A DNA stretch of 64,000 bases from Terriglobia bacterium (lineage in GTDB: Bacteria > Acidobacteriota > Terriglobia > 20CM-2-55-15). Of this stretch, positions 36,591 to 63,898 are shown piece by piece (position 1 is the stretch's first letter; each line of letters begins with the position of its first letter). Under the pieces are notes generated by a model. The model was not told the DNA's origin. It worked only from the letters and a program-made list of their open reading frames with translations, and did no database searches. Position numbers and translations under genes: made by a program. The DNA lies in assembly GCA_965218585.1 (NCBI GenBank), contig CBDCLE010000011.1, positions 77,620 through 141,619 on the forward strand. The letters run 5' to 3'.

Positions 36591-36699
36591 TCCTTTGCCC
36601 TCCTGCTCTGTTAATCGGCAGGAATGGGTATACACGTGGGTCAAATTTCGATGCAAATACCCGCTTTAAGTGGATCAGTTTTGGGTGCAAATCAACAGC

Positions 36700-36831: not shown

Positions 36832-37674
36832 ATGTTGAAAATCATTCCACTCGTGACGGTGGCGATTCTCGCCCTGTCGGTGCCGCTGATCGCACAGGAC
36901 GGAGACGCGGTGTTGCGGATCATCGAAGCCGAAGATCAAATCGTCCAGATCCGGGCCCGGACCCGGCACACCACTGTCATTGTGCTACCCGCGACGGAAA
37001 CCGTGCTGGATTTTGTCGTGGGCGATTCCGAGTATTGGCACCTGACCGGGGCCACGAATCTGGCGTTCCTCAAGCCCATCGCCGAGGGCGTGACGACCAA
37101 CGTCGCGCTCGTGTGCGCTTCGGGGACGATCTACTCGTTCCTCGTCACCGAGAGCGGAGAGCACAATCCGCATCTTGTCGTGCGCGTCGAAGCGCAGGCG
37201 GACGCCGATCCGCGCATCTCACCGGCGGGACATGAGCCCGCCTTTGTCGCACGGAGCCAGGTCGCCGCCTATCAGCAAATGGCGGAGTCGGCGATCGAGA
37301 CGGCCCGGGCCGCGCAGGGGGACGCCGATGCCCGGATCGCGGATGCGGTGGCGCTCGCGGCGAGCGAGGCCGAGGAGTTCCGGGCGGAGTATCCCACCCG
37401 CCTCAAGTTCTCCTACCGATTGGAGGATGACGCGCTCAAGTGGCCGTTCCTGGTCGAGGGGATGTGGCATGACGGGCGCTTTACCTACCTGCGCTCGAAC
37501 GCCCAGGAGTCGCCCGCCCTCTACGAAGAGAAAGACGGCCAACCGGCGCTCGTGGCCTACGACCTGGGCGAGGACGGGCTGTATATCGCCCGGCATGTTC
37601 TAGGTGACGGATGGTTGCAGATCGGCAAACAGAGAGTCCGGTGGCGCTTCACCGCGCCGGAGATCGGGCCGTGA
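36832..37674 (+). CDS. VirB9/TrbG-like T4SS outer-membrane core protein
   Basis: Signal peptide; GDSEYWHL...LKP; MWHDGRFTYL...PALY. Confidence 0.82.
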   Translation: MLKIIPLVTVAILALSVPLIAQDGDAVLRIIEAEDQIVQIRARTRHTTVIVLPATETVLDFVVGDSEYWHLTGATNLAFLKPIAEGVTTNVALVCASGTIYSFLVTESGEHNPHLVVRVEAQADADPRISPAGHEPAFVARSQVAAYQQMAESAIETARAAQGDADARIADAVALAASEAEEFRAEYPTRLKFSYRLEDDALKWPFLVEGMWHDGRFTYLRSNAQESPALYEEKDGQPALVAYDLGEDGLYIARHVLGDGWLQIGKQRVRWRFTAPEIGP

Positions 37675-39020
37675 GCGGATGGCGGCGGCTCTATGCGAAA
37701 CCGGCGGGCGCGCTGCCGGGCGGGATTGTCACTCAATGGGGCGTCGGGATCATCGCCATCCTGGTCCTCCTGCTTCTGAGCGCCTACATCTATTTCGGGG
37801 GCGGTGAGGAAGCGGAGCTTGAGGAGGGCGCGGAGACGGTGCAGGCCCCGGCGGGGAGTTTCGCGGATCGGATGGCTTCGCAGGTCGAGGCCGAAGCTCT
37901 CCGGGCGGAGACCCGCCGACAAGCGACACAGCGGGCGTTGGAGCAGCAGCGGCAGCAACAGGGAGACACCGGCGGTGGGATCGGTGCGGGGCGGGTGAGC
38001 GTGGATGAAGCGATGCTCCTGGCCGGTCCCAGTCCCGACACCGGCCAGCCCTACACCGAGGAAGAATGGGAACTCCGCGAACGCTTGCGCCTGGAAGCGA
38101 TCGAGCGGCGGAGCCGTTCGCTTCGCAGTTCGCCCCTCGCGCAGACCTACCGGCAAGTAGACGAGACGGCAGGGATTGCCAGGCCACAGGGGACTGAAAC
38201 CGAAAGCCCGGTCGGGACCATGAGAGCGGAAGGAGCAGCGGCGCTCGAACAGGCGCTCGACACGCTTGGAACGGTCACAACCAGCCTGGAGGATCAAGTC
38301 GAGGCGGAGGCCCGGGCGGATCAGGCGTTTATCGAAGCACTGCGCGGGACGGAGGCAGCGGCGTTCCCCGCAGTCGCTTCAGCGGGCGCGGCGGACGTGC
38401 CGGCGCCACCGCGCGATTACTCTTCCCCGGTGCGGGTCGGAGAGCCGGAAGATCCTCCCGGCTGGGAACGGATCTATGAAGGCTCATTCCTGGAGGCGAC
38501 GCTGGCGACACAGCTTTCCGGTGACTTCCCCGGCCCAGTCCTGGCCGTGGTTTCGGTGCCGTTCTACTCGGCAGACCGGCAGCGGATTTTGGTGCCGCGA
38601 GGGACGCGAGTCATCGGCACGGCTCAGGCCGTGGCGAACCAGGACCAATCGCGCCTTGCCGTCAGTTTCCACCGTTTGATCCTGCCCGATGGCCGTTGGG
38701 TGTCGCTGGAATTTCATGGGCTCAATCAACTCGGCGAGGGAGCCTTGAAAGATCAGGTGAACCGCCACTACTTCTCCATGTTCGCCGCTGTCGGGGCGGT
38801 CGGTGTCCTCAGTGGACTGACGGCGGCGGGCGGCAACCCTTACGAGGGTGGCGTGGCGGGCTTCGGGGCCGGTGCCGGACAAGGGCTCGGCCAGGCCGCG
38901 ACGCGCATCCTGGATCGTTTCCTGAATCGTTTGCCCACCATCACAATTCGCGCCGGTCACCGGCTTCGCGTCTGGTTCACTTCCGACGTGCGGGTTCCCC
39001 GGCCCCAACAAGGAGACTGA
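37671..39020 (+). CDS. VirB10/TrbI-like T4SS protein
   Basis: TM anchor; EGSFLEATL...GTRVIG...RLILPDG...DQVNRHY...PTITIRAG. Confidence 0.85.
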   Translation: MSGWRRLYAKPAGALPGGIVTQWGVGIIAILVLLLLSAYIYFGGGEEAELEEGAETVQAPAGSFADRMASQVEAEALRAETRRQATQRALEQQRQQQGDTGGGIGAGRVSVDEAMLLAGPSPDTGQPYTEEEWELRERLRLEAIERRSRSLRSSPLAQTYRQVDETAGIARPQGTETESPVGTMRAEGAAALEQALDTLGTVTTSLEDQVEAEARADQAFIEALRGTEAAAFPAVASAGAADVPAPPRDYSSPVRVGEPEDPPGWERIYEGSFLEATLATQLSGDFPGPVLAVVSVPFYSADRQRILVPRGTRVIGTAQAVANQDQSRLAVSFHRLILPDGRWVSLEFHGLNQLGEGALKDQVNRHYFSMFAAVGAVGVLSGLTAAGGNPYEGGVAGFGAGAGQGLGQAATRILDRFLNRLPTITIRAGHRLRVWFTSDVRVPRPQQGD

Positions 39021-44548: not shown

Positions 44549-45945
44549 CAGCCTGCGCCGTAGGAAGTGAATGAGATAATTCTGTCGCAGTTAGGAGGAG
44601 AATGCGATGCCGACGACGTTTCGCCCGTACCAACCGGATCAAGGGTTGCTGCTGCCGCCGGATTTACGGGATTGGTTGCCGGAGGGGCACTTGGCGCACC
44701 ATGTGAGCGATCTGGTGGACGGAATGGACTTGACGGTGTTTTACGCGCCGTACGAAGGGGACGGTCGTCGCAAGTCGCCGTATGAGCCGCGGATGATGGC
44801 GAAGGTGCTGATCTACGGGTACGCGACGGGGGTGTTTTCCTCCCGAGGGCTGGCGCGGAAGCTGGAGGAGGACGTGGCGTTTCGGGTGTTGGCGGCGGGG
44901 AATTTTCCGAGCCATCGGACGATTTGCGAGTTTCGCCGCCGTCATTTGTCGGATTTCAAGGCGCTGTTTGTGGAGGTGGTCGGTCTGGCGCGCGAGACCG
45001 ACGCGGCGGAGGATGCGCGCTTTGGGGCGGCGTTTCGGGGCGACGAGTTGCCCGAGGAGTTGCGCCGGCGGGAGGACCGACTGGCGGCGATCCGGGCGGC
45101 GAAGGCGCGCCTTAAGGCGCGGCAGCGGGAGGCCGACCAGGCGCGGGGACGCGAGCCCGGTTCGAAGCGCAACCGGAAGGGCGGGCGGCCCTACAAGCGG
45201 GAGTACGGCGAGCCGGACGAGAAGGCGCAGGATAACTTCACGGATCCGGAAAGCCGGATCATGAAGACCTCGTCGGAGGGATTTCAGCAGTGCTACAACG
45301 CGCAGGTGGCGGTGGAGGGAGAGAACCAGTTGATCGTCGCCACCGAGGTGTCGTCGAACGCCAGCGACCAGGGTCGGCTGGTCCCGTTGGTGGACGAGGT
45401 GGAGGCCACCCATGGGGAACGGCCGGAGACGGTGCTGGCGGATGCGGGCTACTGCAACGAGGACGACCTGGAGGCGCTGGAGGCGCGCGGCGTGGACGCC
45501 TACGTGGCCTTGGGCCGGGAGGGCCGGCGCGCGGTCGCGGTGGACGCGGCCAGGCATCCGGCGAAGGCCCGCATGGCCGGGAAGCTGGCGACCTCGCCGG
45601 GACGGGCGCAGTACGCCCGACGCAAATGGCTGTCGGAGGCGCCCAACGGGTGGATCAAGGAAGTGCTCGGCTTCCGCCGATTCAGCCTGCGCGGCCTGCA
45701 CAAGGTCCAGGGCGAGTGGAACTTGGTGTGTCTGGCATTGAACGTCAAGCAGTTGCAGAGGCTTCAGGCAGCCTGATGACAGGCATACCGCCCGCAAATC
45801 AGGCCGAACGAGGGCCGATTCAAGCACCTGTGGCGCACCCAGCGGCGCGTCGTCGTCCAAAACGCCCATTCCCCGGTCACGGATGCCGATTGATCGCCAT
45901 CTCGCGTAATTCGCCGAGTCGAAAATCCTCCTACGGCGCAGGCTC
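44549..45945 (+). mobile_element. IS1182-family element copy 1, internally deleted; ORF 44607-45776
   Basis: TIR AGCCTGCGCCGTAGG, CTAG flanks; 51 aa shorter than copy 2 and lacks IDGTKVRANAS. Confidence 0.9.
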
Positions 45946-47439: not shown

Positions 47440-49410
47440 TCACCCCGCAGGCTGAGGCGATCTTGGTAACCGTACCGAGCCGAGGATCTCTGTTCCCCCG
47501 ACAAGCTGCGGGAAAGGCCCACACGGTCCACGTCGGCTCGACGTGCGATTTTCAGATACGCCGCCCTGTAGCGCTGCCACGTTCCGAAAGGCTTTCATCA
47601 ACAATCGAGGGTCACCGTCGAACTCCTCGATCGCGGCGTTCAGGTACGCAGCGATGTCTTGACGTGTTTTGAGGTAGTCGCTAGCGCGGTGTTGTTTCAC
47701 GGGCACTTTTGCTTCTCTTGTTGATAAGCCTTCCAACAGGCCTGGATCATTTTGATGTCGCGGGCCTACCGTTTCTTCGTTCCGCCGACCAGGAGGATCA
47801 CGAGTCTTTCATTATCGAGGGAGTTATTGTCAAAAGTGGTGTTTTGCCGATTGACTCAAGCGGCGGCCTGATCGACGTGGGTCACTTCGATTCCATCGTT
47901 GAATTTCACTCCAGTAATCACCTTGGGCAGATCATCGAATCCTCGTAATCGTCGCCAATTCTTCTGAGCGCACTGTCCCAGTTTGAACATCATGTGCAGC
48001 ATGCCAACCCGCGTCAGGCAACCCCTGGATCGCTTGGTTCGGTGGCGAATGGTAGCAAAAGTCGACTCAATGGGATTGGTCGTTCGGATGCTCTGCCAGT
48101 GCTTGGCCGGGAAGTTGAAGAAGGCCAGCAGTTCTTCTTTGTCTTTCTGGAGGCAGCGAGTGGCTTTCGGATACTTCGGCTCATAGGTTTCAATGAACAG
48201 ATCGAATGCCTTCTCGGCGTCTGTCTGTGTCTGAGCCCGCCAGATCGCGTGCAAAGCCTGTTTCGCCTTCGCCTGGGCCGACTTCGGGAGCCCGTTCAGT
48301 ACGTTCATGGTCTTGTGCATCCAGCAACGTTGGTGACGTGTCTCGGGATAGATTTCCTCCAGTGCGGCCCAGAATCCCATCGCACCGTCTCCGATGGCCA
48401 ACTTCGGGATATTCATCCCACGCGACTTCAGCTTTAACAAGACCTCGCGCCAACTCTGTGTCGATTCCCGGACACCGTCTTCGATTGCCAGAAAACGTTT
48501 CTCTCCGCGTTGATTCGCGCCGATCACCACCAGTGCGCACAACTTGGTTTCTTCGGCCCGCAGTCCGCTGTAGATACCGTCGGCCCAGACATAGACCCAG
48601 CGATCGGCATCCAATCGCTCCTCGCATCCCCGGCGGTACTGCTCGGCCCAGACCTGTTTCAACCGCGATACCGTGCTCGCCGACAGGCCCTGCGCCTGGG
48701 GTCCGACAAGAACTTTTAGAGCGTCACCCATCTCGCCGCTGGAGACGCCTTTCAAATACAACCACGGCACCGCTGCTTCCAGCGATTTCGTTTTCCGAAT
48801 GTAGGGAGGTACCAGGGCCGACCGGAACGTTACCGGGTCGCCAGTCTTCGCTCGGACTTTCGGGATCTGGACCGTTACCGGCCCCAAACCGGTCTGCAGT
48901 TCACGTTCAGGCAGATAACCGTTGCGCACCACCCCGGCGTTGCCCGTCTCGGTTCTCCGATCGCCGTGGTGGGATAGCAGTTCCGCCAATTCGGTTTCCA
49001 CCGCGCGTTGGATCAGTTGCTGAGCTCCAACTCGTAGTAGCTCTGTTATCGGATCCTCAATCGTCTCTCGACCCTCCGGTCCAGTCACGTTACTCTTGCT
49101 CATAGTGGCGTATCTCCCTTGGTTGCTTTGAAGTCTGGTAAACAACAAATCAACCAGATACGCCGCTCTTCCTCAATCCCTTAAACACCAGATTCGGTTA
49201 TAACTCTTATCGAAGCTATAGTACACGCGGTATCCGGGGCCGAAGTCGATTCTAAGTTCGGAAAAGCCCTTCCCTACCCCCTTTGCGATCGCCGAAGTTT
49301 CCCAGCTCGATCCGGTCGATTCACGTCTGAACGCGAGCTCGAATCTCAGTGTCCTGGTTCTGAAGCCACTCGTCAAAGTAGTCCGTACCGACTTCTGCTA
49401 CGTAGTGAAC
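47440..49410 (-). pseudogene. RelE/HigB (HI1419-like) toxin and HI1420-like antitoxin, decayed; toxin split by IS256
   Basis: FDEWL...ELRIDFGPGYRVYY | LVILLVGGTKK with stops; DYLKTRQDIAAYLNAAIEE with frameshift. Confidence 0.75.
47820..49206 (-). mobile_element. IS256-family element; transposase 47856-49103
   Basis: VRNGYLPER, WADGIY, IGDGAMGFW, QRCWMHK, RTTNPIES; IR GAGTTAT..GGTGT; TTATCGA on both flanks. Confidence 0.93.
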
Positions 49411-49758: not shown

Positions 49759-50451
49759 TCATTCCTGCGGGTCATCAGTAATACTCCCTGAGAACGGTTC
49801 AGAACCATAACGGCAATCAAGCAGATTTGGACAATGACCGCAATCGGGGCTGCGTGGGGTACAAATCTTCATTGTGAAATCCAGGACCGCATAGTTATAT
49901 TCCTGAAATGCTCGCGGTGGCGTCAGCCTTTCGGCCAGATCCCTCACCCAGGAAACACCACGTGGGTCGCGGTTGTAAGGATTGCCAGTCATACGGCTAA
50001 GCCAGCGGACCACATTACTGTCAATTAGAACAGCCCGCTTACCCCGGTGCAACGAGAGCCATGCCGCTGCCGTATACGTTCCAACGCCCTTGAGTTTCGT
50101 AAGCTCATCCATGTCTTCCGGCAGGGCGCCGCTGTGTTCAACCGCAACGGCTGCAATGTCACGAAGCAAACCAAGCCGAAAACCTAGCCCCAATTTTCGG
50201 ACTATAAGAGAGACCTCATTTAGATCGGCACCCAATAGGGCTAACGGTGTAGGGTAACGCTTCTTGAACTCCTCATAAACGCCCTTAACCTGGCTAGCTT
50301 GTGTACGTTGTAAAAACAACTCGGCAACAAATGTAAGCCAGGCGCCCGTGTCTATCCGCCATGGATATTCCTGATAATTCTTCCGCCCCCAATAGAGCAG
50401 ACGACGGCGTATGTTCCGAACTTGATGTCCTGTGAGCTCTTGCGTTGTCAC
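49759..50451 (-). CDS. HhH-GPD DNA glycosylase, Mig (T:G mismatch)/MutY-like
   Basis: YPWR, ELFLQRT, LKGVGTYTA (HhH), DSNV, C-x6-C-x2-C-x5-C FeS motif; no MutY C-terminal domain. Confidence 0.85.
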   Translation of the reverse strand: MTTQELTGHQVRNIRRRLLYWGRKNYQEYPWRIDTGAWLTFVAELFLQRTQASQVKGVYEEFKKRYPTPLALLGADLNEVSLIVRKLGLGFRLGLLRDIAAVAVEHSGALPEDMDELTKLKGVGTYTAAAWLSLHRGKRAVLIDSNVVRWLSRMTGNPYNRDPRGVSWVRDLAERLTPPRAFQEYNYAVLDFTMKICTPRSPDCGHCPNLLDCRYGSEPFSGSITDDPQE

Positions 50452-50468
50452 TATCCGCTTCTCTTCAA

Positions 50469-51835
50469 TGGGGTTGACCCGGTTTAGTGGACACCTGATC
50501 CTCTTGCGAGGAGGAGGTATCCACGATGCCGAGAACGAGGGCACCGTATGCGGCGGTATTCCGGGAGCAGATGGTCGAGCTGGTTCGGTCCGGACGCACA
50601 CCGGAGGAGTTGGCCCGGGAGTTTGAACCGTCGGCCCAAGCGATTCGGAACTGGGTGGCACAGGCGGGCCGTGATGCTGGCCAGCGGACCGACGGCCTAC
50701 GTAGTGAAGAACGCGAGGAACTGAGGGGGCTACACCGGGAGAACCGGCGCCTGCGCGACGAGCGTGAAATCCTGGAAAAAGCAACGGCATGGTTCGCAGG
50801 GGAGACCGGATCCAGGAGGTCTACCGGTTCATGAGTGCGAATCAGGGGCGTTTTCCTATCGCCACGATGGCCCGGGTGCTTGGCGTCTCCCCGAGCGGGA
50901 ACTACGCGTGGCGTGGGCGTCCACGGTCGGGTCGCTGGCAGGCCGATGCGGAGCTGACGGTGCGAGTCCAGGCGATCCATGCCCGCGGCTGCGGGAGCTA
51001 AGGCGCGCCACGAATTCACGCCGAACTGGCCGCACGTGGCGTTGCGGTCAGCCGCAAGAGGGTGGCGCGGGTGATGCGCGCCGCGGGCGTGACCGGTGTG
51101 AGCCGTCGCCGTGCGCCGCGCACGACGCGTCGGGACTCGCAGGCTCCGCCGGTACCGGATCGGGTCGAGCGGCACTTCCAGGCCGACGCGCCGAATCGCC
51201 TGTGGATCGCCGATATCACCCACGTGCCGCCGCTCGTCGGCTTCCTGTACCTGGCCATCATTCTCGACGTGTTCAGCCGGCGGATTGTGGGCTGGGCGAT
51301 GGCGAACCACCTGCGCACCGAGTTGGTCGTTGAGGCGCTGGAGATGGCCGTGGCACAACGCCGGCCGGCCGGGGTCATTCATCATTCGGACCGAGGCTGC
51401 CCAATACACGTCGCTGGCCTTCGGCGCCCGCTACCGCGACTGGGGCGTGGCGCAGTCGCTGGCCTCGACAGGCGATTGTTTTGATAACTCGATGGCCGAG
51501 AGTTTCTTTGCGACGCTGGAATGCGAACTGCTCGACCGCATGACCTTGTCCACGCATGCCGCGGCGCGGAAGGCAGTGTTCGATTTCATCGAAGGTTGGT
51601 ATAACACCCATCGACGCCATTCGGCTCTGGGCTATCGGTCGCCGTTGGAATTCGAACGACTCCATGCCGGCCCTGTGGACGGTGCCCGGCCTGTGGACGC
51701 CCTTCGGCGACCACAGGTCCGTTGGACCCCACGCTGCGCGCGGGCCCCACACCGCCCACAGGCAACGACGACGATGTCAATCTCATGACGTGAACCCGAA
51801 AGCGTTAACCTGTCCACGAAATCGGGGCAAGCTCA
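50469..51835 (+). mobile_element. IS3-family element, degenerate (orfA 50526-50834; orfB with stop at 50999 and frameshift near 51400)
   Basis: TG...CA ends with TGGACA/TGTCCA IR core; WIADIT, HHSDRG, DNSMAESFFATLECE. Confidence 0.88.
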
Positions 51836-51837
51836 AC

Positions 51838-52365
51838 CTAATCAAGCCAAATGATTTTTGCGATGCCGAGTTTCGTGGCCGCATCCTCAACCAGTACCCG
51901 CGCGTGCATTTCATGAAACCTCCCTAGAGAATAGAAGAAAACGGCGGCATGAGGGCCGCTGTTAGATTTGCCAAATGTCCGTTCATGCAATGCCATCAAT
52001 ATCGTTTTCCAGTCGTCGGCGCGACCCCAACAAATCACTCGCCCATCCTCAAGCCGCCGGCCATGTGGTTTGGTATACCTGTCGATGACATACGCGGCTT
52101 CCGGAATGCCAAGAACTCGAAATGGCTGTTCATGGTCTGCCAGACGAGACCTGGTGTAATCCTTTAGTAGTGTGTCCTTTATGTAGACGCGAATCTGTCC
52201 CTGCCCCATATACCTGCCAAGACGGCCACCAATTTCGGGGTCCTTGGTCCATGCCTCATAGTGGTGAGACTTATCCGTCGGACTAAGGGTAGCCCACCCC
52301 AGATCATCGGCTTGCTGCCATAGCTTCTCTCTTAGAGCGGTTCTTGTGGTGTCTGGAACACTCAT
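51838..52365 (-). CDS. Hypothetical 175-aa protein coupled to the helicase gene
   Basis: ATGA overlap with helicase stop; no motif recognised. Confidence 0.75.
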   Translation of the reverse strand: MSVPDTTRTALREKLWQQADDLGWATLSPTDKSHHYEAWTKDPEIGGRLGRYMGQGQIRVYIKDTLLKDYTRSRLADHEQPFRVLGIPEAAYVIDRYTKPHGRRLEDGRVICWGRADDWKTILMALHERTFGKSNSGPHAAVFFYSLGRFHEMHARVLVEDAATKLGIAKIIWLD

Positions 52366-55300
52366 TGGACATTTCCGGGCGGTGCCGGATCAGGAAACTC
52401 AAACTGGGGTAGCTCAAGTGTCGGGTCGCTCTCTCGCAAAAACAAAGACGCTTGATCGAGCATCCACTCTTGAAGGAAGCTGCCTGCTGACGCATCGCTG
52501 AACTGAACGATCCGACTTCCTAAACCCAAGCGCTCCAGTGGACCATCACGTGCCGCCTTGTCGAGTTCAATGACCTCGGCAATCCGTCGAATATCCGTGA
52601 CAAAATCCAGAACGATCACGTTCTTCTTGCCAGGACTCACACGAAGACCACGCCCTAACTGTTGAACAAATATACGGCGGCTGTGAGTCGCTCGCAAGAA
52701 CACAATAAGATCGACATCCGGCACATCGACTCCCTCGTTAAACAGGTCGACACTCGTGAGTACGTCCAGGTGACCGACCCTGAACCGGGTCATCAGTTTG
52801 TCGCGTTCGCGAGGAGGCATGTCGCCGTAAATTGGCTCTGTCTTTATGCCATAGCGGCGAAGCATTGCAGCCATGCTTTTTGCATGAGCGATTGTGGGGC
52901 TGAACAGTATCGCAGCACGCCGTCCTTCGTTTTCGAAGGCTTGCTTGATTAGCCGCGCGGCCTGTTCATCCCTTGTTGGGATAATGAGCTTGCGGTTCAA
53001 TTGAGAGAGAGAATACTTGTGTGTAGATGCCTCTTGAACAAAGTTCCAGTCGAGATTATCAGCTAAGAGCCGATAGTCCACCTCTGACAAGAAGCCTTGC
53101 TGTAGTCCCTCGGCAATCCCGATCTTCACCAACGGCTGACCGAGAATCTCGTCAATATCGAATGCGTCACCGCGCCAGGGCGTCGCCGTGACACCTCCAA
53201 GCATTGGCGGATTCAACACATGAATTGCACGTCGAAACATATCCGCTCCGACATGATGCGCTTCGTCAACGAGTATGAGGCCGAAACTGGGAAGTTTATC
53301 AAGTTGGGAAACGACGCTCTGAATGGTCGCGAACGTAATGCCGTCCCAATAAACTGGGCGCTCGCCCTCGGAAAATTGGTGAGTTGGCACCCAACTCGGA
53401 AGCTGGTACCAGAATGCCTTGTGGAGCTGATCAACAAGTTCGCGGGTATGGGCGAGAACAAGCACTCGGTTTTCTGTGATTAGACCATCCCGATACAAAT
53501 CAGCTACGACCTCAGCCATCACGACGGTTTTACCAAGACCGGTAGCTAGCACGACTTGCGCGCGCCCTGTATCGAGCAAGGCTTCACGAAACCGCGACGA
53601 GGCATTTTCCTGATAATCACGCAGTGCGCGACGGGAAGGCGCATATTCGGGGCTGCTCCTCATACGTTTGAGTAACACGCCGGGTGGGGCTAGGAGCCTG
53701 CGCCGTAGGAAGTGAATGAGATAATAGTGTCGCAGTTAGGAGGAGAATGCGATGCCGACGACGTTTCGCCCGTACCAGCCGGAGCAGGGGTTGCTGCTGG
53801 CGCCGGATATACGGGATTGGTTGCCGGAGGGGCACTTGGCACACCATGTGAGCGATCTGGTGGACGGATTGGACTTGACGGCGTTTTACGCGCCTTACGA
53901 GGGGGACGGTCGTCGCAAGTCGCCGTATGAGCCGCGGATGATGGCGAAGGTGCTGATCTACGGGTACGCGACGGGGGTGTTTTCGTCCCGAGGGCTGGCG
54001 CGGAAGCTGGAGGAGGACGTGGCATTTCGGGTGTTGGCGGCGGGGAATTTTCCGAGCCATCGGACGATTTGCGAGTTTCGCCGGCGTCATTTGTCGGATT
54101 TCAAGGCGCTGTTTGTGGAGGTGGTCGGTCTGGCGCGCGAGACCGGGGTTGGGAACTTCGGCAAGTTGTCGATCGACGGGACGAAGGTTCGAGCCAATGC
54201 CAGCAAGCGCAAGGCGATGAGTTACGGTCGGATGCAGGAGGAGGAGCGGCGCCTGGAGGGCGAGATCGAAGCGTTGCTGTCGCGCGCGCGGGAGACCGAT
54301 GCGGCGGAGGACGCGCGTTTCGGGGAGGCGCATCGCGGCGATGAGTTACCCGAGGAGTTGCGCCGCCGGGAGGATCGGCTGGCGGCGATCCGGGCGGCCA
54401 GGGCGCGATTGGAGGCCAGGCAACGGGAGGCCGACGAGGCGCGGGGACGCGAGCCCGGTTCGAAGCGCAACCGGAAGAGCGGGCGGCCCTACAAGCGGGA
54501 ATACGGCGAGCCGGACGAGAAGGCGCAGGACAACTTCACCGATCCCGAAAGCCGGATCATGAAGACCTCATCGGAGGGTTTTCAGCAGTGCTACAACGCG
54601 CAGGTGGCGGTGGAGGGAGAGAAGCAGTTGATCGTCGCCACCGAGGTGTCGTCGAACGCCAGCGACCAGGGTCGGCTGGTCCCGTTGGTGGACGAGGTGG
54701 AGGCCACCCATGGGGAACGGCCCGAGACGGTGCTGGCGGATGCGGGCTACTGCAACGAGGACGACCTGGAGGCGCTGGAGGCGCGCGGCGTGGACGGCTA
54801 TGTGGCCTTGGGCCGGGAGGGCCGGCGCGCGGTCGCGGTAGACGCCGCCAGGCATCCGGCGAAGGCCCGCATGGCCGAGAAGCTGTCGATGGAGGCGGGA
54901 CGGGTGCAGTACGCCCAGCGCAAATGGCTGTCGGAGGCGCCCAACGGGTGGATCAAGGAGGTGCTCGGCTTCCGCCGATTCAGCCTGCGCGGCCTGAACA
55001 AGGTCCAGGGCGAGTGGAACTTGGTGTGTCTGGCATTGAACGTCAAGCGGATGCAGGGGCTTCAGGCAGCCTGATGACAGGGATACCGCCCGCAAATCAG
55101 GCCGAACGAGGGTCGATTCAAGCACCCGTGGCGCACCCATCGGCGCCTCGTCGTCCAAAACGCCCATTCCCCGGTCACCGATACCGATCAATCGCCATAT
55201 CGCGAAATTCGCCGAGTCGAAAATCGTCCTACGGCGCAGGCTCCTAGCTCGATCTTGAGACCTTGGCGCTCAAAACGAGCCTTCTCTTCCAAGAGTCCCC

Positions 55301-55598
55301 GGCCGGGTGGTCGCGACGTAGACACAACCATTCGGTCCGCTTCGTAATATCGAGCGGCTTCAACGACCTCGCTTACTGCGGCCTTTGGCGGATTTGACGA
55401 GGTGGTATGTTTACATTGCCAAACCCACAGCTTGTCGTTCTTGACGCCTAAGACATCCGCCCCTCGATCACCCGACCCGCCGACAACGCGCACATCACCA
55501 AATCCATTAACGATGAGGAGGCGTGCAACATCTCTCTCGAATGCCTTCCAAGGGCCATACAGCAGCCTTCGCTCATCAAGGAACCCGGAAAGCTGCAT
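52362..55598 (-). pseudogene. Mrr-like restriction endonuclease-SF2 (DEAH, ResIII-like) helicase fusion, interrupted by IS1182
   Basis: FERDVARLL...GDRGADV...QCK; LATGLGKT, DEAHH, TATP, EGVDVP, QQLGRGLR; removing the IS restores KIEL-APPGVLLKRM. Confidence 0.88.
53694..55243 (+). mobile_element. IS1182-family element copy 2; full-length transposase 53752-55074
   Basis: TIR GAGCCTGCGCCGTAGGA, CTAG duplication (53690-53693, 55244-55247); IDGTK, ADAGY motifs. Confidence 0.93.
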
Positions 55599-55600
55599 GG

Positions 55601-57935
55601 CTACTCCTCGTTGAGGGCCGCAGACGGCGCTAGGAGCTCCAGAGACAAACTAGCGCGTAGGAGACGCGCACGATCAGCAGCGGCTAAGTCATCCACGTCT
55701 TGTTCCGCAAGCCAAATGGCGTCAGCAAGCAGGCCTTCAAAGTATCTGACCAACTGCGCCTTGGCCTCTTCTGTTGCACTCGGCCGCCCGTAATCCAACT
55801 CCGAGTAGCTCTCATCCCAATACTGATCGTCAAAGAACAGCTCAGGGTGCTTAGAGAAAAATTTCAGAATACTGGTACGAGGCGCATACTCAAGGAAGCG
55901 ACCCGCGGCGATAGCTGCTTGGGGGTTCGCCAACTGACGCGTTGCCATCTTATGGAGGATGGCCTCCTGTTCGGAAGGGGAAAACTCTTCGAACAGCACT
56001 CGACCATCTTCCGGATCGAGTCTCTCTGAAACACCTTTCGCAATATCTGAAAGCGTCAAGGACGCTTCGCCGGACAAAGTAACAGGATCGAGCTTGGTGG
56101 TACCCGCATATCGTTCTCTGAGGTCCGCCAGAACCACACCAAAGGGTATGTCGGATTGGTCACCTCGGAGAAAATCCTTGGCTGACCAGGCTAACTCGGC
56201 GAGCAATGCATCCAACGTTGTGAGCGTTGCTGAGCGAAACGCCTCATGGGTTGGATTGACGAAAAACTCGTGCAGGCCCGAAGCCGTAGCTTTCAGTCTC
56301 CACGGAACCGTCTCCTCACCGAGTTCGGGATCGGAGTCCTCTACCGTCCAAGCGCGAACCTCCCAGCGTTGGTTGCTTCGATCATGTCTGTATTCTTGGC
56401 TCAGTGATGCCAGATGAGTTCGGTGTGCTGGCTCCGGCACTGGTTCCGGAGTATCAGGCTCCTCAGGTGGCTCTTCTTCTCCCTCATCCCCAAACCCCTC
56501 AAGGTCGTCATCTGGATCTCCTGTTGTCCCCGTATCCGTCAGAAGCTTCCGGTCTTCTTCCTCGACAAGCTCCCACCATTTTGTGTCTTCCCGGCATTCG
56601 AGATCACCAGCATGGAATTTCTTCGCCATCTGTTCGGCAAGATCATTGTCTCTAACAATGAGCAACCGCGCCCACGAACCTGCTACTTTGGGCTTCGGGC
56701 TTGACCGTCGGAAAGCTTGGAAAAGCAGGAACAAGGGGCTGTCATTCGGACCAAATCCAAGTTCACGCGCCTTGTCCGGGCGCAATGGACCATCGCCGCG
56801 AACGATATGCCCCATTTCCTCCCAGGCAGGATCGTTCCGGTCAAACCTGTTCTTTCGTGTATGTCACCCGACAATGGTCGAGATGGATCTCACCAACCAG
56901 ACGTCCCCTATTCCGCGGATCGTCAATCGGATATTCGGGCTCCTCACCGTCGTCGGAGTGCCAGACAAAGAGCTCTCTGCTGGAAATTTCGATCTTTCGT
57001 CCGTTCCGTATGAAATCGACTCCGTATTCGGAGTTGCTGAGATACCGCTGGACACCCATCCAGCCATGAACACGTCGCTTTCGCTGTATTATCTGTCCGC
57101 CACGGCCACAGGAACATTCGGTCTGGCCCGCCGGCAACCATTGCCAGCAGGCAAGGCAAAAGGGTCGGTCGCTTAGGTTTCGATCGATTGTCTGAAAAGC
57201 TCGAACTGTACCGAATCTAGGGCTCTGAACGATTCTTTCATCGCCCCAGATGCAAGGGTATCGGGCCTGTACTCTGTTTCTGTTGACAGACAGAGAAAAT
57301 GAAATCGGCACCCCGGTGGTTCGCAGCATTGCGGAGTACGTTTTGCTTAACTCGCGCGATATCTGACTCCTGTTGGCCGCGCGGGCGAACCACGTACGTT
57401 GCTCAGGTTTCAAAAGCTCGATGGATACTTCCGTTCCATGTTCGTGAGGATCAACCTTCTCCCTCTTGAGATGCGGCGTTCGAAAATGCCTCTGCTGCTG
57501 AAGCGCGTTGAAATCGATTTTTAGACCATGCCATTCAGCATCATCGCGACGGGTGGTCCAAACGGTCGTGACCGTCCCGAGACGCGCGGTAGCGATGTTG
57601 AATCCCATGCCAAACATGCCCAAGCTATCCACGGGAGTATTTCCGCTCCAACCGGCGCGCACTGCTGTTTCCAAGGTCTCAGACGACATGCCGGAACCGT
57701 TATCTCGGACAGATATCTTGGCGGAACCGCTATCCGAGGTTGGGACGGCGATATGCACTTCAGGATCGTCAACTGCTTTATCCTGTCGCTTCGCTGACAG
57801 AAATCCATCAACGGAATTGTCTACGAGTTCCGCTAGACACCGCCACTGCGCGAGATTGATTTCGCCGAGCATCGGCAAAATCCGCGGATCGGGTTGCAGA
57901 TCGAACTCGTCTTGCGTCTGAATATCGTCATTCAT
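55601..57935 (-). CDS. MORC-like GHKL ATPase with S5 fold, Zn ribbon and helical C-terminus (1-nt indel near 56850)
   Basis: ELVDNSVDG, DNGSGM, GMFGMGF, HGTEV; CLAC...CSC; RLVGEIHLD; removing one A restores YTKDRFDRNDPAWEEMG. Confidence 0.8.
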
Positions 57936-57949
57936 AAGTAGCACCCCCG

Positions 57950-59194
57950 CTATCTCCGGCTTTTTGACCGACTGGTATTTTTCTTGTTGGCAGATCCAGC
58001 TATTTGTCGGAAAAGCTTCCGTCCAATTACCTCCGCAAGATCAACCGGAACCGCGTTCCCAATCTGCCGCGTTACGTGGATCCGAGCCCCACAAAATACG
58101 AAATCGTCGGGAAACCCTTGGAGTCTCGCCGTTTCGCGCAGCGTGAAATAGCGATGCGTCCCATCATCCAGCAAGACGATATTCTCGCCGCCGGGAACGC
58201 CATGAACCCCCGCCTTAATTGTCTTTGATGGCCAGTCTAGTCGGCTGCCAGAATGGCCACGATAGATTCGTGCGCCGCGAACTAGCCAATGATTATTGTC
58301 GGATTTCGACTCGCTGGCGGCAGGAGACGGAAGGTCCGATATCGAATCCCGGACAGTCTTCCACGCATCAAATGCCGCAAAATCGTCCAAGTCCAATGCG
58401 GCCGTGCCGTTTGGCCCATTTTTAGGAGGCTTTAAGCGGCGGCTTTTCCAGTATTCACCATTGGTCTGTGTCCGTATTAGGGCTTCTTTTTTGTGGCTCG
58501 CCAGCGGAAAATCAAACTTTCCGGTAATGTCGGCCCTGGTCGCAATGATAAAGATGCGTCGCCGATTCTGCGCGATTCCGTAGTCGGCCGCTTCCAATAG
58601 CGCCCAGTTTACGTGGTATTCACACTCGTCCGTTGTAGCCTCTTCGTGTTGAGAAATTCGTTCGTCGTGTTTCTGCCACTCCTCTTCTTTCTTGGGCGCC
58701 ACAGAAGGCCATTCGAGCTGCCGTAAAATATACTCAAGGTATGGGCGAAACGACAGCCGAGCCAATCCTTGGACATTCTCGAGCATCACGGCTTGAGGCC
58801 ACAACGATCTCACCGCCCGGAGAACTTCGGGAAACATATTGCGATCGTCTTTGTCTGCCAAGTGACGGCCTGCCAAGCTAAATGGTTGGCATGGCGCGCC
58901 ACCAGCAAGCAGCCGGATTGGTCCTTCGAATTCGTCCCAATTCAATTTAGAAACATCTTCCTCGCGCACCTCACCATGTAACAAACCACCCTTAGACGAA
59001 TGGTTCTTTTCCAGCGTTTCGCAGGTATGCGGATCGATTTCAAATACATGTGAAAATTGAAACCCTGCCTTTTGTAGGCCCAGAGTCATACCACCGGCCC
59101 CAGCGAAGATTTCAATATCGGCAGAGGAGGTTGCTGTTGCCTTCTTAGATTTTCGAGTTTTGGTCACGGCCCCCGAACCGCCGATGGCGGTCAC
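57950..59194 (-). CDS. DNA cytosine-C5 methyltransferase
   Basis: FAGAGG, GGAPCQPFS, ENV, QNRRR, RETARLQGFPD, QIGNAVP. Confidence 0.95.
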   Translation of the reverse strand: MTAIGGSGAVTKTRKSKKATATSSADIEIFAGAGGMTLGLQKAGFQFSHVFEIDPHTCETLEKNHSSKGGLLHGEVREEDVSKLNWDEFEGPIRLLAGGAPCQPFSLAGRHLADKDDRNMFPEVLRAVRSLWPQAVMLENVQGLARLSFRPYLEYILRQLEWPSVAPKKEEEWQKHDERISQHEEATTDECEYHVNWALLEAADYGIAQNRRRIFIIATRADITGKFDFPLASHKKEALIRTQTNGEYWKSRRLKPPKNGPNGTAALDLDDFAAFDAWKTVRDSISDLPSPAASESKSDNNHWLVRGARIYRGHSGSRLDWPSKTIKAGVHGVPGGENIVLLDDGTHRYFTLRETARLQGFPDDFVFCGARIHVTRQIGNAVPVDLAEVIGRKLFRQIAGSANKKNTSRSKSRR

Positions 59195-59311: not shown

Positions 59312-59480
59312 TCAGGCCACTGGTGACAGCCGTTCGACCTTGATTTTATCGGCATGCTTCATCGCTTGCGCTAGGTCGCAGACAGCCTGGAGCTGCGGCC
59401 ACGTGTCGGCACCGCCCCCGAATGCCTTGTCGAGCCGGATTGCCATTTCAGGCGAGATGCTCGCGTGACAGTTCACGATG
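59312..59480 (-). pseudogene. HigA antitoxin C-terminal remnant
   Basis: SISPEMAIRLDKAFGGGADTW...DLAQA. Confidence 0.7.
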
Positions 59481-59543
59481 GTCGATGCCGGCTCGACTCC
59501 GCAGCGTCAAGTTGACATTCTTATGACTGAAGGAAGAATCGCC

Positions 59544-59780
59544 ATGAGTGGCCACGACGCATTCGAGCGCATCCTGGCATCGTTGTACGATGCCAGGCTC
59601 GACGATGTCCACTGGCCGGACACCACGGCCCTGATTGACGAGGCCTGCGGCAGCACGAGCAATGTTCTCATGATCGGCGAAGGCCCGAAGGACGACATCC
59701 GGGTCCTCACCGTCGGGCTCTACTACCAGGGGCAGCGACGCGAAGACCTGGAACGAGAGTACCTCGAGGTCTACCATCCC
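59544..59780 (+). pseudogene. N-terminal fragment of a probable LuxR-type regulator
   Basis: FERILASLYDARLDDVHWP...LEREYLEVYHP, then resemblance ends abruptly. Confidence 0.5.
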
Positions 59781-59860
59781 AAACGGGGAAACGGGGAGCG
59801 CCGGTTGGCGCTGAAATTCTGTGGCCTGAAGTGTGGGGCAAAGCGATCGAATCGAGGATT

Positions 59861-59894
59861 TTTACGCGCGATAACTGGAATTATCGGGCGTAAA
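59861..59894 (+). other. 34-bp lox-like recombination site A
   Basis: TTTACGCGCGATAA-CTGGAA-TTATCGGGCGTAAA (14-6-14). Confidence 0.8.
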
Positions 59895-60197
59895 CATCAG
59901 TTCCGCGCCAAGTCCGTACTGCATGAGCATTTCGCGCCGTGATCCGCATTCCCGAGCACGTTCGATCATAACCTGCTGAAATCACTTCGTTTTTCCGGAA
60001 AAGCGTTGCGTCCGCCGACGTGACACAGGCGGAGGGCGATGCCCCATTGCGGGGTATTGTAGCAAGAATGTCCACTTTTTTACTCGCGATAACAACCGAG
60101 AGGGATCCGGGCACCGCTTGGGACGGTGCGGGCGAGCCTATACCCCGGACGTGCGCGCCGACATCACGACCCGGAAGTCTCTAGCGTGGGGCCGGCC

Positions 60198-61181
60198 TCA
60201 GCGCTGCTGCCGCTCGGCCAGTTGCGCGGCGCCGCTACGCCGGGCCAGCAACCGTTCCCCGTAGCGTTGGACCATGCGTGTCGTCTTCCACCGCCCGGAC
60301 TGCAGGATGGCCGGCAACTCGATGCCGCAGGCGATCATATCCTGAACCGGCCCGACGCGCGTGCTGTGCCCGGCCAGGGCGTCGACGATGTCGTCCGGAA
60401 GCCCGGCGCGCCGTGCCATCCTCTTGTAGATGCGCGGCACCTGGCTCGGGTCGAGTTTCTCCCGCACCGTGCCGTCCTTCCGCACCGAACGAAACAACCG
60501 CCCCTCGCCGACGCCGCTGGCTTCCAGCCAGACCTGGACCAACTGCACGGTGTCGCGCGCGAGATAGAGCATCGCGCCTCGTCCGTCCGGGTCGGTCTTG
60601 CCCGACCGCACCAGCAAGGTTGCGGACCCATCGACTTCCACCAATAAATCAGACACTTCCAGCGACACCAGCTCGGACCGCCGCAACATGGTGTCGTAGG
60701 CCACCGCCAGCAGCGCGCGGTTCCGGACGTCGATCCGCCGGTCACCGGCCGCCTCCAGCAGCCGGTTCCGCAGCGGTCAGGTCAGCCCCTGAACCTGCGC
60801 CTGCCGGCGCCCCCGGAGCCGGTGCATCCGTTGCAGGGCGAACCGGACGAGGGCGCTCTCGAGCGGGTTCGTCTGCCGGAGCGCTTTGTGCATGGTGGCG
60901 ATGCTGGAGACGTAGCGGCGCACCGTCGACGGGGCCTTGACCCGCGCCATGTCGTCGATAAAGGCGACGAGGGTGGCGGCGCTGGCGGGCAGAGCCGCCA
61001 GGACGTGTTGCCGGCACCAGGTCGCGAAGATCTCCACATCCGCCCGCAGCGCGCGCTCCGTGTTGCGGCTGAACGCACCCCGGGCCGCTTCGAAGTAGAC
61101 GGCCAGCTGGTCTCCCACCTCCGCGGCGTGTTCAACATCGGCCAGGATCTCCAAGTCGAGTGTCGGGTCTGAAATCAGCAT
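60198..61181 (-). pseudogene. Cre-like tyrosine recombinase with one in-frame TGA (60777-60779)
   Basis: N-terminal SRNTERALRAD; MLRRSE, SGKTD, GHSTRVG, GRWKT, MVQRY; both ORFs in the same frame. Confidence 0.88.
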
Positions 61182-61217
61182 CGGTCAGCCTCCGGTTCAG
61201 TCGAAAAGACCGCGCAT

Positions 61218-61251
61218 TTTACTCGCGATAATTCCAGTTATCGCGCGTAAA
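61218..61251 (-). other. 34-bp lox-like recombination site B (inverted relative to A)
   Basis: TTTACTCGCGATAA-TTCCAG-TTATCGCGCGTAAA; reverse complement matches site A at 32/34. Confidence 0.8.
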
Positions 61252-61602
61252 ACGGACCCGAGAACCGCTGAGAACGCAACCCATCAGGGCCCATTCCGAT
61301 TGCCTCAAACACGCTAGTAGCTGCTTGACTGCCATACAGTTTTTGACGCGACTCGGCCGCCAACGTTAAGGTCGGTCGCCGGTGTCGTCCCCCGGCGATC
61401 CTGGCCCGAGGTTGCTGGTTGGCTTACCCGTCCGTCGGCACGGTGAAGCGTGAGCTGTGTCCACACTTCGGCGGTGATCCGTGTTCGGCACGCAACGTGG
61501 CTCGCGGATCCCATCACGTTAGAGTCGGAAAGTACTTGTAGGGTCCTGTCCTGGGTCGCCTGCCATCGACCATCTAGTTTCAAGTCATGGGATCACCACG
61601 AC

Positions 61603-62223
61603 ATGGAGGCTGCCCTGAAGAAATACGGTAACCGGTTGATCGCGATGACGCTGCTCTGCGGCTCCTGGCTAATGGCCGCGTCCTGCACCCCGGCGCAGAA
61701 CGAACAAGAACTCTTTCAGAACGATGCCGAGCAGGGGGACGCGGACACGCCGGACAGCCTCGGACGCAGGTACGACGATGGCGAGGCCGCTATAGAAGAC
61801 GATGGCGAGGCCGCTATAGAAGATGACCGTGAAGCAATGCGGTGGTTCCGCACAGCGGCGGAGCAGGGGGACGCGCGTGCGCAGTTCAATCTGGGAACCA
61901 TGTATGACAACGGCGAGGGGGTCATCGAAGACGATGCGGAAGCGGCGCGATGGTACCGCATGGCGGCCGAGCAGGGACACGCGAGCGCACAGTTCAACCT
62001 CGGGGTCATGTACGACAACGGCTTGGGGATCATCGAGGACGACGTGTTCGCGCACATGTGGTTTAACATGGCCAGCGCCAATGGAAGGGTCAGTATCGCT
62101 GGCGTTGGGCCCGAGGAGTCACGGGCCAATCTTGAGCGTGAAATGACCAGTGCCCAGATCAGCCGCGCCACTGAGCTGGCACGCGCATGCGTGGCCTCGG
62201 ACTACCAGAACTGCGGGCCGTAA
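61603..62223 (+). CDS. Sel1-like repeat lipoprotein
   Basis: LMAASC lipobox-like; AAEQGDARAQFNLGTMYDNGEG repeats. Confidence 0.85.
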   Translation: MEAALKKYGNRLIAMTLLCGSWLMAASCTPAQNEQELFQNDAEQGDADTPDSLGRRYDDGEAAIEDDGEAAIEDDREAMRWFRTAAEQGDARAQFNLGTMYDNGEGVIEDDAEAARWYRMAAEQGHASAQFNLGVMYDNGLGIIEDDVFAHMWFNMASANGRVSIAGVGPEESRANLEREMTSAQISRATELARACVASDYQNCGP

Positions 62224-62329
62224 GCTGACCCGGAAGCAGCTGTCAACTCGAACAGTTGTATGATGAGCAGCAACGGTCCGACGTCGTCGCCGACGGTCCC
62301 GATCTGGTCGAGGCCATCCGGGATATTGT

Positions 62330-63898
62330 TTGAGGAAAGCGCCTCCAAGACGCGTGGCAGGAACCGAAGGCCGTCCCGGTTCCTTGGAGCGGCGAGAGGT
62401 CGGCGCAGTGCGGCGTCGAGCGCTGACGGCCCTGACGATGGGCCTGATCGCCCTAGCGACCGGTTGCGCACGCGCTCGGCCCGCACCCGTCGTCCCGCCT
62501 CCAGCCAGCCCTACCGAGCAGTTCATCGCGGCGATCCACGGTGCCATGCGGTCAACGGGTGTCGAACGCGCCACCTGGGGTATCGCGATCCGGTCTCTGG
62601 ATCGCGACGAGACGATCGTGGAGTTGAATGCCGACGCGTTGCTCGTTCCCGCCTCGGTCATGAAACTCGTTACGCTGGGAGCGGCCGTGGAGGCGGTTGG
62701 GTGGGACTACGCGTTCGATACCACGCTCACGGCCCGGGGCCGGGTCGTTGACGGCGTCCTCGCCGGCGACCTCGTGGCGCTAGGAACCGGCGATCCGACG
62801 ATCGGGGGACCGGGAGGAGAGGGTTTGTCTGCCTGGATCGAGGCCGTGCGCGCCCGCGGCATCACCCGCGTGTCGGGACGGATCATCGGGGACGACGATG
62901 GCGCCCAGGAACCGCTGCCGCTCTTGGCTTGGGCGTGGGACGATCTCGGCTACCGGTACGGCGCGCTTCCCGGCGCGCTCAACTTCGTCGAGAATGCAAT
63001 GGCCATCACACTCGCCCCCGGGCCGCAAGCCGGGACGCCGACGGTGCTGACCGTGCCCGGAGGCCTTCCGGCGCCGACAATCGCGAACGACGTCGCTACA
63101 GGCTTGCCGGACTCGATGGCCACGCTCCGACCCATCCTCCAGCCCGGCGGTCTCGGACTTCGGATCCTCGGCATGCTCCCGGCCGACGGCCCACCGGCGA
63201 CCTTCGCCGTATCGACGGGCAACCCGACACTATGGTTCGCCTCCGTGCTCCGGCATCGTCTCGTCGAGGCGGGTATTGCCGTCGAGGGTCGGCCTGTGGA
63301 CATCGACGATCTGTCTGGTGGCTTGGCGAACGGGCCAACCACCGTTCTTCACACCCATCGCTCCCCACCCCTGTCGGCGATCGCCGTGACGATGCTGAAG
63401 TACAGCCGAAACCTCTACGCCGAGACCGTCCTGTGGCTGACGACTGGGCCGGCGGGGCCTCGCGCCGCCGGTCCGGCCCTTGATGCGCTCCGCGAGCGGC
63501 TCGCCGGCTGGGGGATCGCCGGTGGAGATCATCAGATCGTGGACGGATCGGGGCTGTCGCGGCGCAATGCCGTGACCGCGCGGGCGCTGGTCACCGTCCT
63601 GGACCGCTTTTACGATCCAGGGTGGACTTCCCCGTGGATGCAGGCGCTGCCGGTGGCCAGCCGCGACGGAACCCTCGAAACGCGCCTGTTGGGAACACTG
63701 GCCGAAAACAACCTGGTGGCAAAGACCGGCTCGATGTCCAACATCCGTTCGCTGGCGGGCTATGTGCGGACGCGGGACGGCGAACCGCTGGCGTTCGCCG
63801 TCATCGTGAACAACTTCGAGGGCTCCGGCCGAGACGCCGAGGCGGCGGTCGACCGCATTGCCGCAAAGCTGGCCGGCTTCAGCCGTCGCGGCCGGTAG
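62330..63898 (+). CDS. dacB: D-Ala-D-Ala carboxypeptidase/endopeptidase (peptidase S13, PBP4); start uncertain
   Basis: PASVMK, GDP, SRN, DGSGLSR, KTG. Confidence 0.9.
   Translation: MRKAPPRRVAGTEGRPGSLERREVGAVRRRALTALTMGLIALATGCARARPAPVVPPPASPTEQFIAAIHGAMRSTGVERATWGIAIRSLDRDETIVELNADALLVPASVMKLVTLGAAVEAVGWDYAFDTTLTARGRVVDGVLAGDLVALGTGDPTIGGPGGEGLSAWIEAVRARGITRVSGRIIGDDDGAQEPLPLLAWAWDDLGYRYGALPGALNFVENAMAITLAPGPQAGTPTVLTVPGGLPAPTIANDVATGLPDSMATLRPILQPGGLGLRILGMLPADGPPATFAVSTGNPTLWFASVLRHRLVEAGIAVEGRPVDIDDLSGGLANGPTTVLHTHRSPPLSAIAVTMLKYSRNLYAETVLWLTTGPAGPRAAGPALDALRERLAGWGIAGGDHQIVDGSGLSRRNAVTARALVTVLDRFYDPGWTSPWMQALPVASRDGTLETRLLGTLAENNLVAKTGSMSNIRSLAGYVRTRDGEPLAFAVIVNNFEGSGRDAEAAVDRIAAKLAGFSRRGR

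Follow-up and report, generated by a model that had tools for sequence, protein, structure and literature searches.

A decayed Cre-type recombinase gene between its own inverted lox-like sites belongs to a conserved cassette family that may form invertible switches

Why should a gene for a Cre-type recombinase lie between two inverted copies of a site that its own product is likely to recognize, and what does such an arrangement do for its host? This question is raised by a cassette at 59861-61251 of a 64,000-nucleotide stretch of DNA from a Terriglobia bacterium (GenBank assembly GCA_965218585.1, contig CBDCLE010000011.1, positions 77,620 to 141,619), the whole of which we refer to as the window. 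A first-pass annotation, made from the letters of the window alone, had described the cassette as self-inverting and now locked, or else as the core of a mobile unit. We have compared the cassette with its relatives and with the DNA around them, and regard it as probable, with moderate confidence, that it is a self-contained unit in which the recombinase gene sits inside its own inverton, forming an invertible switch in intact relatives and surviving as a dead copy in the window.

Both flanking sites are 34 bp long and follow a 14-6-14 plan. Site A, of the downstream type (D), occupies 59861-59894 and reads TTTACGCGCGATAA CTGGAA TTATCGGGCGTAAA; site B, of the upstream type (U), occupies 61218-61251 and reads TTTACTCGCGATAA TTCCAG TTATCGCGCGTAAA, its spacer being given as on the plus strand. 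Within either site the arms are complementary at 13 of 14 positions, the two sites agree at 32 of 34 positions as inverted copies, and a repeat search recovers them as a 35-nt inverted pair that is 94% complementary; the positions, the inverted match and the CTGGAA spacer were all confirmed on the sequence as first described. Either site can also be divided as 13-8-13, which is the plan of loxP. The lone arm that had been reported at 60079-60092 was likewise recovered as one of five arms in the window, and this half-site, TTTACTCGCGATAA on the plus strand, is oriented as the inner arm of the upstream site. Allowing up to two mismatches, the 14-mer arm occurs five times in the 64-kb window, exactly as these five arms, where shuffled sequence gives an expectation of 0.32 and five or more occurrences were reached in 0 of 100 shuffles. 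Across the 4.55-Mb assembly the degenerate pattern TTTACNCGCGATAA, with up to one mismatch, matches the five arms and three isolated places elsewhere, each of the latter with one mismatch.

The gene between the sites is a pseudogene on the minus strand, of 327 codons and a stop (61181..60198). Its translation matches the Pfam family Phage_integrase (PF00589, E 2.7e-15, residues 139-307), and its best match among solved structures is Cre, near full length (E 3.7e-25, residues 22-316). All Protein Data Bank matches from 3.7e-25 to 6.4e-23 are Cre or the engineered derivative Tre, the next being a XerC-like chain at 8.6e-06, and the NCBIfam Xer models score about 41 bits, far below their cut-off of 335. 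Alignment to 7rhy_A places R167, K195, H272, R275, W298 and Y307 at Cre R173, K201, H289, R292, W315 and Y324, and this catalytic hexad is invariant across the 11 family members aligned. The 327-codon recombinase with R-K-HxxR-W-Y residues of the first-pass annotation is thereby upheld. On this evidence the product is a Cre-type tyrosine recombinase, and it is predicted to be the enzyme acting on the flanking sites.

The reading frame is interrupted by a TGA at codon 135 (60779..60777, peptide context ...QGLT*PLRN), which leaves the window copy unable to make the C-terminal catalytic domain. The equivalent codon specifies W in 9 of 10 aligned homologs and G in the tenth, and it is TGG in an intact copy from a sister species of the same genus (locus L010 in genome G003), whose protein is 97% identical; the derivation of TGA from TGG suggested at first is well matched by these comparisons. 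The window and L010 genes differ by 34 synonymous and 11 non-synonymous codons, which indicates that the recombinase gene was under purifying selection until lately. We found no second recombinase copy in the window's genome at E <= 1e-5 (the assembly is 95% complete). By these signs the window copy is locked, as had been proposed: its conserved tryptophan codon has become a stop, the genome has no second copy, and the giant-gene partner seen in relatives (see below) has been lost.

A conserved 36-nt leader precedes the gene (61182..61217, minus strand), with GGAGG at 61189-61193, 7 nt before the ATG, and the gap between the end of site B and the ATG is 36 nt, in agreement with the original measurement. 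Beyond the stop lies a 303-nt 3' non-coding region (59895..60197, minus strand) with conserved blocks in a 17-cassette alignment, and the lone arm is kept as GTTATCG(C/G)GAG(C/T)AAAA about 100 nt past the stop in 15 of these 17 cassettes. A small open reading frame (ORF) in this region was considered and ruled out, as the conserved blocks are separated by indels whose lengths are not divisible by three. An Rfam search of the cassette returned a single sub-threshold match (60954-61001), within the recombinase coding region.

Has the cassette ever inverted? Comparison with L010 indicates that it has. L010 matches the window directly over 61217-62435 and in inverted orientation over 61245-59860. 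The 432-bp flank at 61226-61657 shows 0 differences between the two loci, but in L010 it borders the cassette at its opposite end. The inner arms are exchanged as well: the right site of L010 consists of the reverse complement of the inner arm of site A, followed by TTCCAG and the outer arm of site B, and its left site has the inner arm of site B. This exchange of arms is exactly what an inversion between A and B predicts. The same junction is present in public contigs from runs X8 and X6, where 61226 adjoins 59887, the two being on opposite strands. The X6 contig has the window-type allele of the adjoining Sel1-repeat gene, without the 24-bp deletion that marks L010, and shows 0 differences over 568 nt of flank. 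The interior of the X8 contig is that of the sister lineage and has 35 differences and 2 gaps, as against 34 and 2 between the window and L010 over the same stretch. These data from X6 and X8 are contigs and show only that the junction is present, which is no proof of switching within a population. The proposal of a self-inverting element is supported by L010 and these contigs, and together they demonstrate at least one inversion during evolution, in so far as sequence comparison can record such an event.

The cassette has many relatives. A protein search in which 8000 candidates were scored gave 1919 relatives at E <= 1e-10; the best 120 of these 1919 are nearly all 326-327 aa long (a few are 319-337) and 80-92% identical. 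Species-representative genomes contain 22 loci with 69-85% identity, up to four or five per genome, in metagenome-assembled genomes (MAGs) labelled Vicinamibacterales/Acidobacteria, Gemmatimonadetes, Gammaproteobacteria and Bryobacterales. Metagenome contigs contributed 7 cassette loci, all in the usual orientation, and the window's own phylum 6 further loci with 56-80% identity, a match being present in only 4 of the 401 genomes sampled from that phylum. A search of homologs for flanking sites had been set beforehand as a test on which the original proposal could fail. We therefore took 30 related cassettes, drawn from four bacterial groups, and compared the spacers at their two ends, each read inward from the outer side; 29 of the cassettes have an inverted pair with the same 6-bp spacer at both ends. 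Eight matched spacer types occur (CTGGAA, CTGGAT, CGGGAT, CTGCCT, CTGTAA, CTAGAG, TTGCAG and TTGTAG). The sole mismatch, CGGGAA against CTGGAA, is found in L015 (999-2388), whose upstream site may be inactive despite an intact gene. Two paralogs in one genome with common immediate flanks, L070 and L072, differ by one spacer base, which is altered at both ends. Since Cre-type strand exchange requires identical spacers, such covariation is expected under selection for recombination between the two ends of a cassette.

Complete genomes gave a consistent picture. In five of them, the core CGCGATAA-N6-TTATCGCG, with up to one mismatch, is present solely in inverted pairs, 15 in all, each enclosing a recombinase gene (14 spaced 1.34-1.39 kb and one 2.8 kb); these five genomes contain no solo sites, and a control pattern gave 0 matches. 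In most cassettes 36-39 nt separate the upstream site from the ATG, and the leader and its GGAGG are conserved; the subgroups L019/L026 and L070/L072 depart from this spacing by a few nt. This recurring spacing is compatible with autoregulation of the recombinase gene by the site, as far as its sequence context goes. One cassette, L033 (2929-5774), measures 2.8 kb where 1.4 kb is usual, the additional DNA, about 1.45 kb, lying after the recombinase stop and before the downstream site. Further away the arrangement fades: a search for paired sites found no palindrome in the 56% identical relative L071, and of the homologs at most 50% identical that lie on alphaproteobacterial plasmids (124 records), the three inspected have one palindrome or none, so paired sites do not characterize the wider family as a whole. 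A phage origin was sought in 50,697 phage records and in IMG/VR, where there was no match. Judged by these comparisons, the window cassette is one decayed member of a conserved, widespread family.

The neighbours of intact members bear on what the cassette may do. At 19 of 23 non-redundant loci, a divergent ORF begins 8-170 bp outside the upstream site and is 400 aa or longer, or else is cut off by the end of the fetched flank; 18 of these 19 ORFs encode fn3, Cadherin-like, Calx-beta, LRR, Big or CARDB domains. The neighbours of L010 and L033 have weak domain matches only, that of L026 is a di-haem peroxidase, and that of L029/L031 is a 118-aa ORF. Gemmatimonadetes-type loci have AGGAGG and an ATG about 25-31 bp from the upstream site; a promoter outside the cassette would thus have no room, and the transcript of the giant gene must begin within the site or beyond it. 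We propose that the recombinase would bind the four 14-bp arms of the two inverted 34-bp sites that bracket its own gene, pair the sites and exchange strands across the asymmetric 6-bp spacer, flipping the whole 1.1-1.4-kb segment with the recombinase gene inside it. The lone fifth arm would probably bind a further subunit, with an accessory or regulatory role. Each flip would swap the sequence in front of both the giant extracellular-repeat gene and the recombinase gene, and the outcome may be an ON/OFF (phase-variation) switch for a surface protein with built-in self-limitation, the promoter of which has not been located. The regulatory output of flipping is what we infer from this arrangement.

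Several observations weigh against such a switch. A sigma-70 consensus promoter facing outward from the 3' non-coding region is present in only 2 of 21 cassettes (L019 and L026); scanning the 3' non-coding region, the two outer flanks and the 5' part of the recombinase gene gave matches in 2, 0, 1 and 0 of 21 cassettes, where 0.4-0.8 were expected, a scan that is uninformative for these phyla. The 59895..60197 region of the window itself has no sigma-70 consensus promoter. In two cassettes there are only 58 nt of non-coding DNA, and the recombinase gene shows no peak of synonymous-site constraint of the kind that an embedded promoter would give. A stretch of 40-80 bp just outside the downstream site is likewise conserved among members of a subgroup. 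The window copy has no adjoining giant gene, and the switch reading rests on its relatives. Flipping within a population was not seen among the assembled cassettes and contigs, and the X8 contig, being sister-lineage sequence, is possibly not independent of L010. Finally, 25 of 26 assembled cassettes share one orientation, the window alone having a downstream-type flank at its upstream site, which implies either that one orientation dominates or that inversion is rare. The outward-facing matches read TTGACG-17-TACAAT in L019 and TTGACG-17-TAGGAT in L026, and both lie some 60 bp to the inner side of the downstream site. Only in this short-cassette subgroup, which is without the lone arm, does a near-consensus promoter occur.

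A broader form of the switch reading would make these cassettes portable Cre/lox-type flip switches that have spread horizontally among Acidobacteria, Gammaproteobacteria and Gemmatimonadetes, each gating a giant surface or adhesion gene, with the lone arm limiting the reaction to inversion within a cassette and the spacer variants preventing cross-reaction between cassettes in one genome. We put this forward tentatively, as a possibility that we doubt more than we favour.

The flanks of the window cassette raise the further question of whether sites of different cassettes have recombined with one another. On the side of site A, a 78-bp flank (alpha, 59783..59860), identified by BLAST and flank clustering, is one that is kept outside the downstream site in a LuxR-linked subgroup; on the side of site B, the plus-strand beta flank (61252..61657) leads to the Sel1-repeat gene (61450-62223). 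Flank clustering equates the upstream flank of the window with the downstream flank of L010 (score 120); the beta flank resembles the downstream flanks of other groups only marginally, its score of 25 lying below the null maximum of 27. The window thus has downstream-type flanks on both sides, alpha/LuxR at A and beta/Sel1 at B, and is the sole mixed case among 26 cassettes. At 56 informative sites its interior sides with the Sel1-linked cassette of G003, and at 16 with the LuxR-linked cassette of that genome. Mixed flanks and interior likeness together lead to a simplest history of an in-place inversion plus one flank exchange at a site. On that simplest account the window cassette would have undergone at least one inversion and one flank exchange.

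It could be argued from this that the cassettes are landing pads or exchange points, where sites belonging to different cassettes recombine, so that islands are integrated or flanks reshuffled, and that the window shows the right-hand junction of such an event. The two downstream-type flanks do require an exchange between sites of two contexts, both of which occur in G003 on separate contigs (L010 and L013); an island ridden with insertion sequences and conjugation-gene remnants lies to the left of the cassette, and several cassettes of the same genome have one spacer in common. However, a second junction was not found in the 95% complete assembly, which holds no second recombinase, no further arms and no left flank of L010. 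The closeness of the interior to the Sel1-linked cassette also means that one exchange would be insufficient, and mixed flanks are confined to a single cassette of the 26. We therefore consider an exchange-point role unlikely. An empty site was also sought, in three other genomes of the genus, which have only Sel1-repeat matches, the flank not being present.

The alpha side has a history of its own. A remnant of a LuxR/GerE-family regulator gene, comprising about its first 101 codons, lies on the plus strand at 59478..59781. In relatives this gene is whole (378-431 aa), carries the GerE domain and is convergent on the cassette. The window sequence at 59488-59781 is 79-80% identical to L018 and L015, but lies 1.25-1.3 kb farther from the cassette there, and the BLAST matches of L011, L013-L018 and L032 all start at 59783/59784. 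Contigs of other organisms (runs X3 and X5) continue beyond 59781 with the frame intact. Since homology ends at 59781/59783 and the frame is intact elsewhere, a deletion of about 1.25 kb in the window has fused codon ~101 to the alpha flank. Past the LuxR gene, a conserved 84-aa protein of no family is found in two different genomes (L018, 6302-6556; L015, 4289-4543), which suggests, from gene order, that a larger neighbourhood is shared beyond the alpha flank. In the sister species the second cassette, L013 (G003:C1, 490-1794), is cut by an IS5-like transposase gene; what remains is the last ~97 recombinase codons, the lone arm, one site with the spacer ATCCCA and the alpha flank with LuxR.

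Could the cassette instead be a mobile element resembling an insertion sequence, with the lox-like sites as terminal inverted repeats and the recombinase moving the 1.4-kb unit? Such an element could account for the up to five cassettes per genome, for a patchy distribution (only 4 of the 401 genomes sampled in the window's own phylum have it, although MAGs of Acidobacteria, Gemmatimonadetes, Gammaproteobacteria and Bryobacterales contain copies that are 69-85% identical), for the lack of solo sites in the five complete genomes and for the fact that similarity among many copies begins at the upstream site. Its expected traces are missing, however: a target-site duplication of at least 3 bp was found in 0 of 21 cassettes, and dispersed copies with unrelated flanks are only 84-91% identical within a genome, the closer ones being segmental duplicates, which gives no sign of recent transposition. 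Moreover, Cre-type exchange between inverted sites inverts DNA and cannot excise it, the position of the cassette is constant relative to the start of the giant gene, subgroups show conserved sequence beyond the downstream site, and no copies occur in the phage or IMG/VR collections. Transposition of this kind seems quite unlikely. The core of a mobile unit, which the first-pass annotation had offered as an alternative, accordingly finds little support, there being no target-site duplications, near-identical dispersed copies or solo sites. Least probable of all, to the point of being highly improbable, is a stranded plasmid or phage maintenance system for dimer resolution or circularization like that of P1 Cre-loxP: homologs at most 50% identical do occur on alphaproteobacterial plasmids (124 records), one with a single palindrome upstream, but members of the clade lie on chromosomes or MAG contigs and always have two inverted sites, a pair that alone cannot resolve dimers, paired sites were not found in the three plasmid homologs inspected, and there were no phage matches.

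We return to the cassette as an inverton that contains its own recombinase gene, and to how it compares with known systems. Cre/loxP of phage P1 is like it in providing the closest solved structure, the same catalytic R-K-H-R-W-Y residues, a site close to the gene and a 34-bp site plan. It differs in that the similarity between Cre and the window recombinase is weak though full-length (E 3.7e-25); P1 has a single loxP for circularization and dimer resolution, whereas in the window family two inverted sites bracket the gene on chromosomes, and the family adds a conserved fifth lone arm and abuts giant surface-protein genes. FLP/FRT of the yeast 2-micron plasmid also has its gene between two inverted targets and flipped by its own product, but there the plasmid is eukaryotic, inversion serves copy-number amplification and kinship exists only at the level of the tyrosine-recombinase superfamily. 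In Salmonella, an H segment of roughly 1 kb with inverted sites is flipped by Hin, which switches a surface antigen; Hin is a serine recombinase that needs Fis and an enhancer and acts on 26-bp hix sites, unlike the window family with its Cre-type tyrosine recombinase and full lox-like sites. A recombinase gene inside its own segment is thus known for Hin, and a Cre-type tyrosine recombinase with a lox-like pair is a variant of that arrangement. In the fim switch and the Bacteroides invertons the recombinase gene lies outside a short promoter segment (~0.2-0.3 kb) with short repeats, whereas in the window family the whole gene is the invertible segment and a promoter has not been located.

Published accounts place these features in context. 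The location of the hin gene within its own invertible segment is described for Salmonella (PMC9368917), and tyrosine recombinases, among them FimB and FimE, flip DNA before surface-structure genes in the fim switch of E. coli and in the invertible promoters that Bacteroides has for outer surface proteins (PMC6083910, PMC7641763). The loxP geometry is given as two 13-bp arms and an 8-bp spacer, with cuts 6 bp apart (PMC10250229). The same paper (Jelicic et al. 2023) covers Vika/vox, Nigri/nox and the YR series, sought palindromes within 1 kb of each gene and lists about 500 predicted recombinase/site pairs, with one site per gene. Its active sites have a G(T)-A-T(G)-A motif by the spacer, where the window family has GATA, and the arm TACTCGCGATAA in its table S2 (accessions CP033586.1 and CP036251.1) equals 12 nt of the window family's arm; the portion consulted contains no mention that we could find of inverted pairs bracketing a gene, or of neighbouring genes. 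A literature search for an inverton containing its tyrosine recombinase gene, or for a link to surface proteins of sponge symbionts, returned nothing fitting, which is not proof of absence.

The cassette stands at the edge of a disturbed region. From 49759 to 59191 the window has a lower-GC stretch (52-56%) in which insertion sequences break up a series of defence-type genes. These encode a type II nicking-endonuclease-like HhH-GPD protein (49759-50787), a helicase that corresponds to the central part of type IV methyl-directed restriction enzymes (52362-53675), an Mrr-like nuclease (55188-55595), a 403-aa protein without a family assignment (55601-56812), a GHKL ATPase (56841-57941) and a C5 cytosine methyltransferase (57950-59191). 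Insertion sequences and their fragments, including rve fragments, are numerous over 28582-55071, with an IS110-type element (28582-29640), IS21 istA/istB (34301-36653), two IS5-like DDE genes of high GC3 (44607-45773 and 53752-55071) and an IS256-type gene (47856-49145); conjugation remnants TrbG/CagX and TrbI lie at 36832-39017. A 54-aa ORF at 59312-59476 has no Pfam match, and we take it to resemble the C-terminal part of a HigA-type antitoxin. In all four runs the summed contig depth around it is very high, which indicates that this stretch is common to many organisms. On the other side, the Sel1-repeat gene has 108-bp internal repeats (window 61726-62054) and, at 61774, a 24-bp in-frame length difference between the window allele and that found in L010 and in runs X5 and X8.

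Taken alone, the window copy is of modest significance, as a pseudogene left where site-specific rearrangement once took place, on the border of a decayed genomic island. If the family does function in the way proposed, it would constitute a natural Cre/lox-type self-inverting module, with enzyme, two full sites and an accessory arm in 1.4 kb. Engineering would also gain a panel of related recombinases, with no fewer than eight spacer variants already matched in nature, and, should these prove to be portable switches, a ready-made set of mutually orthogonal recombinase/site pairs. For the bacteria themselves, the module would have been reused before giant surface-protein genes, and may offer a handle on surface variation in uncultured, poorly studied phyla.

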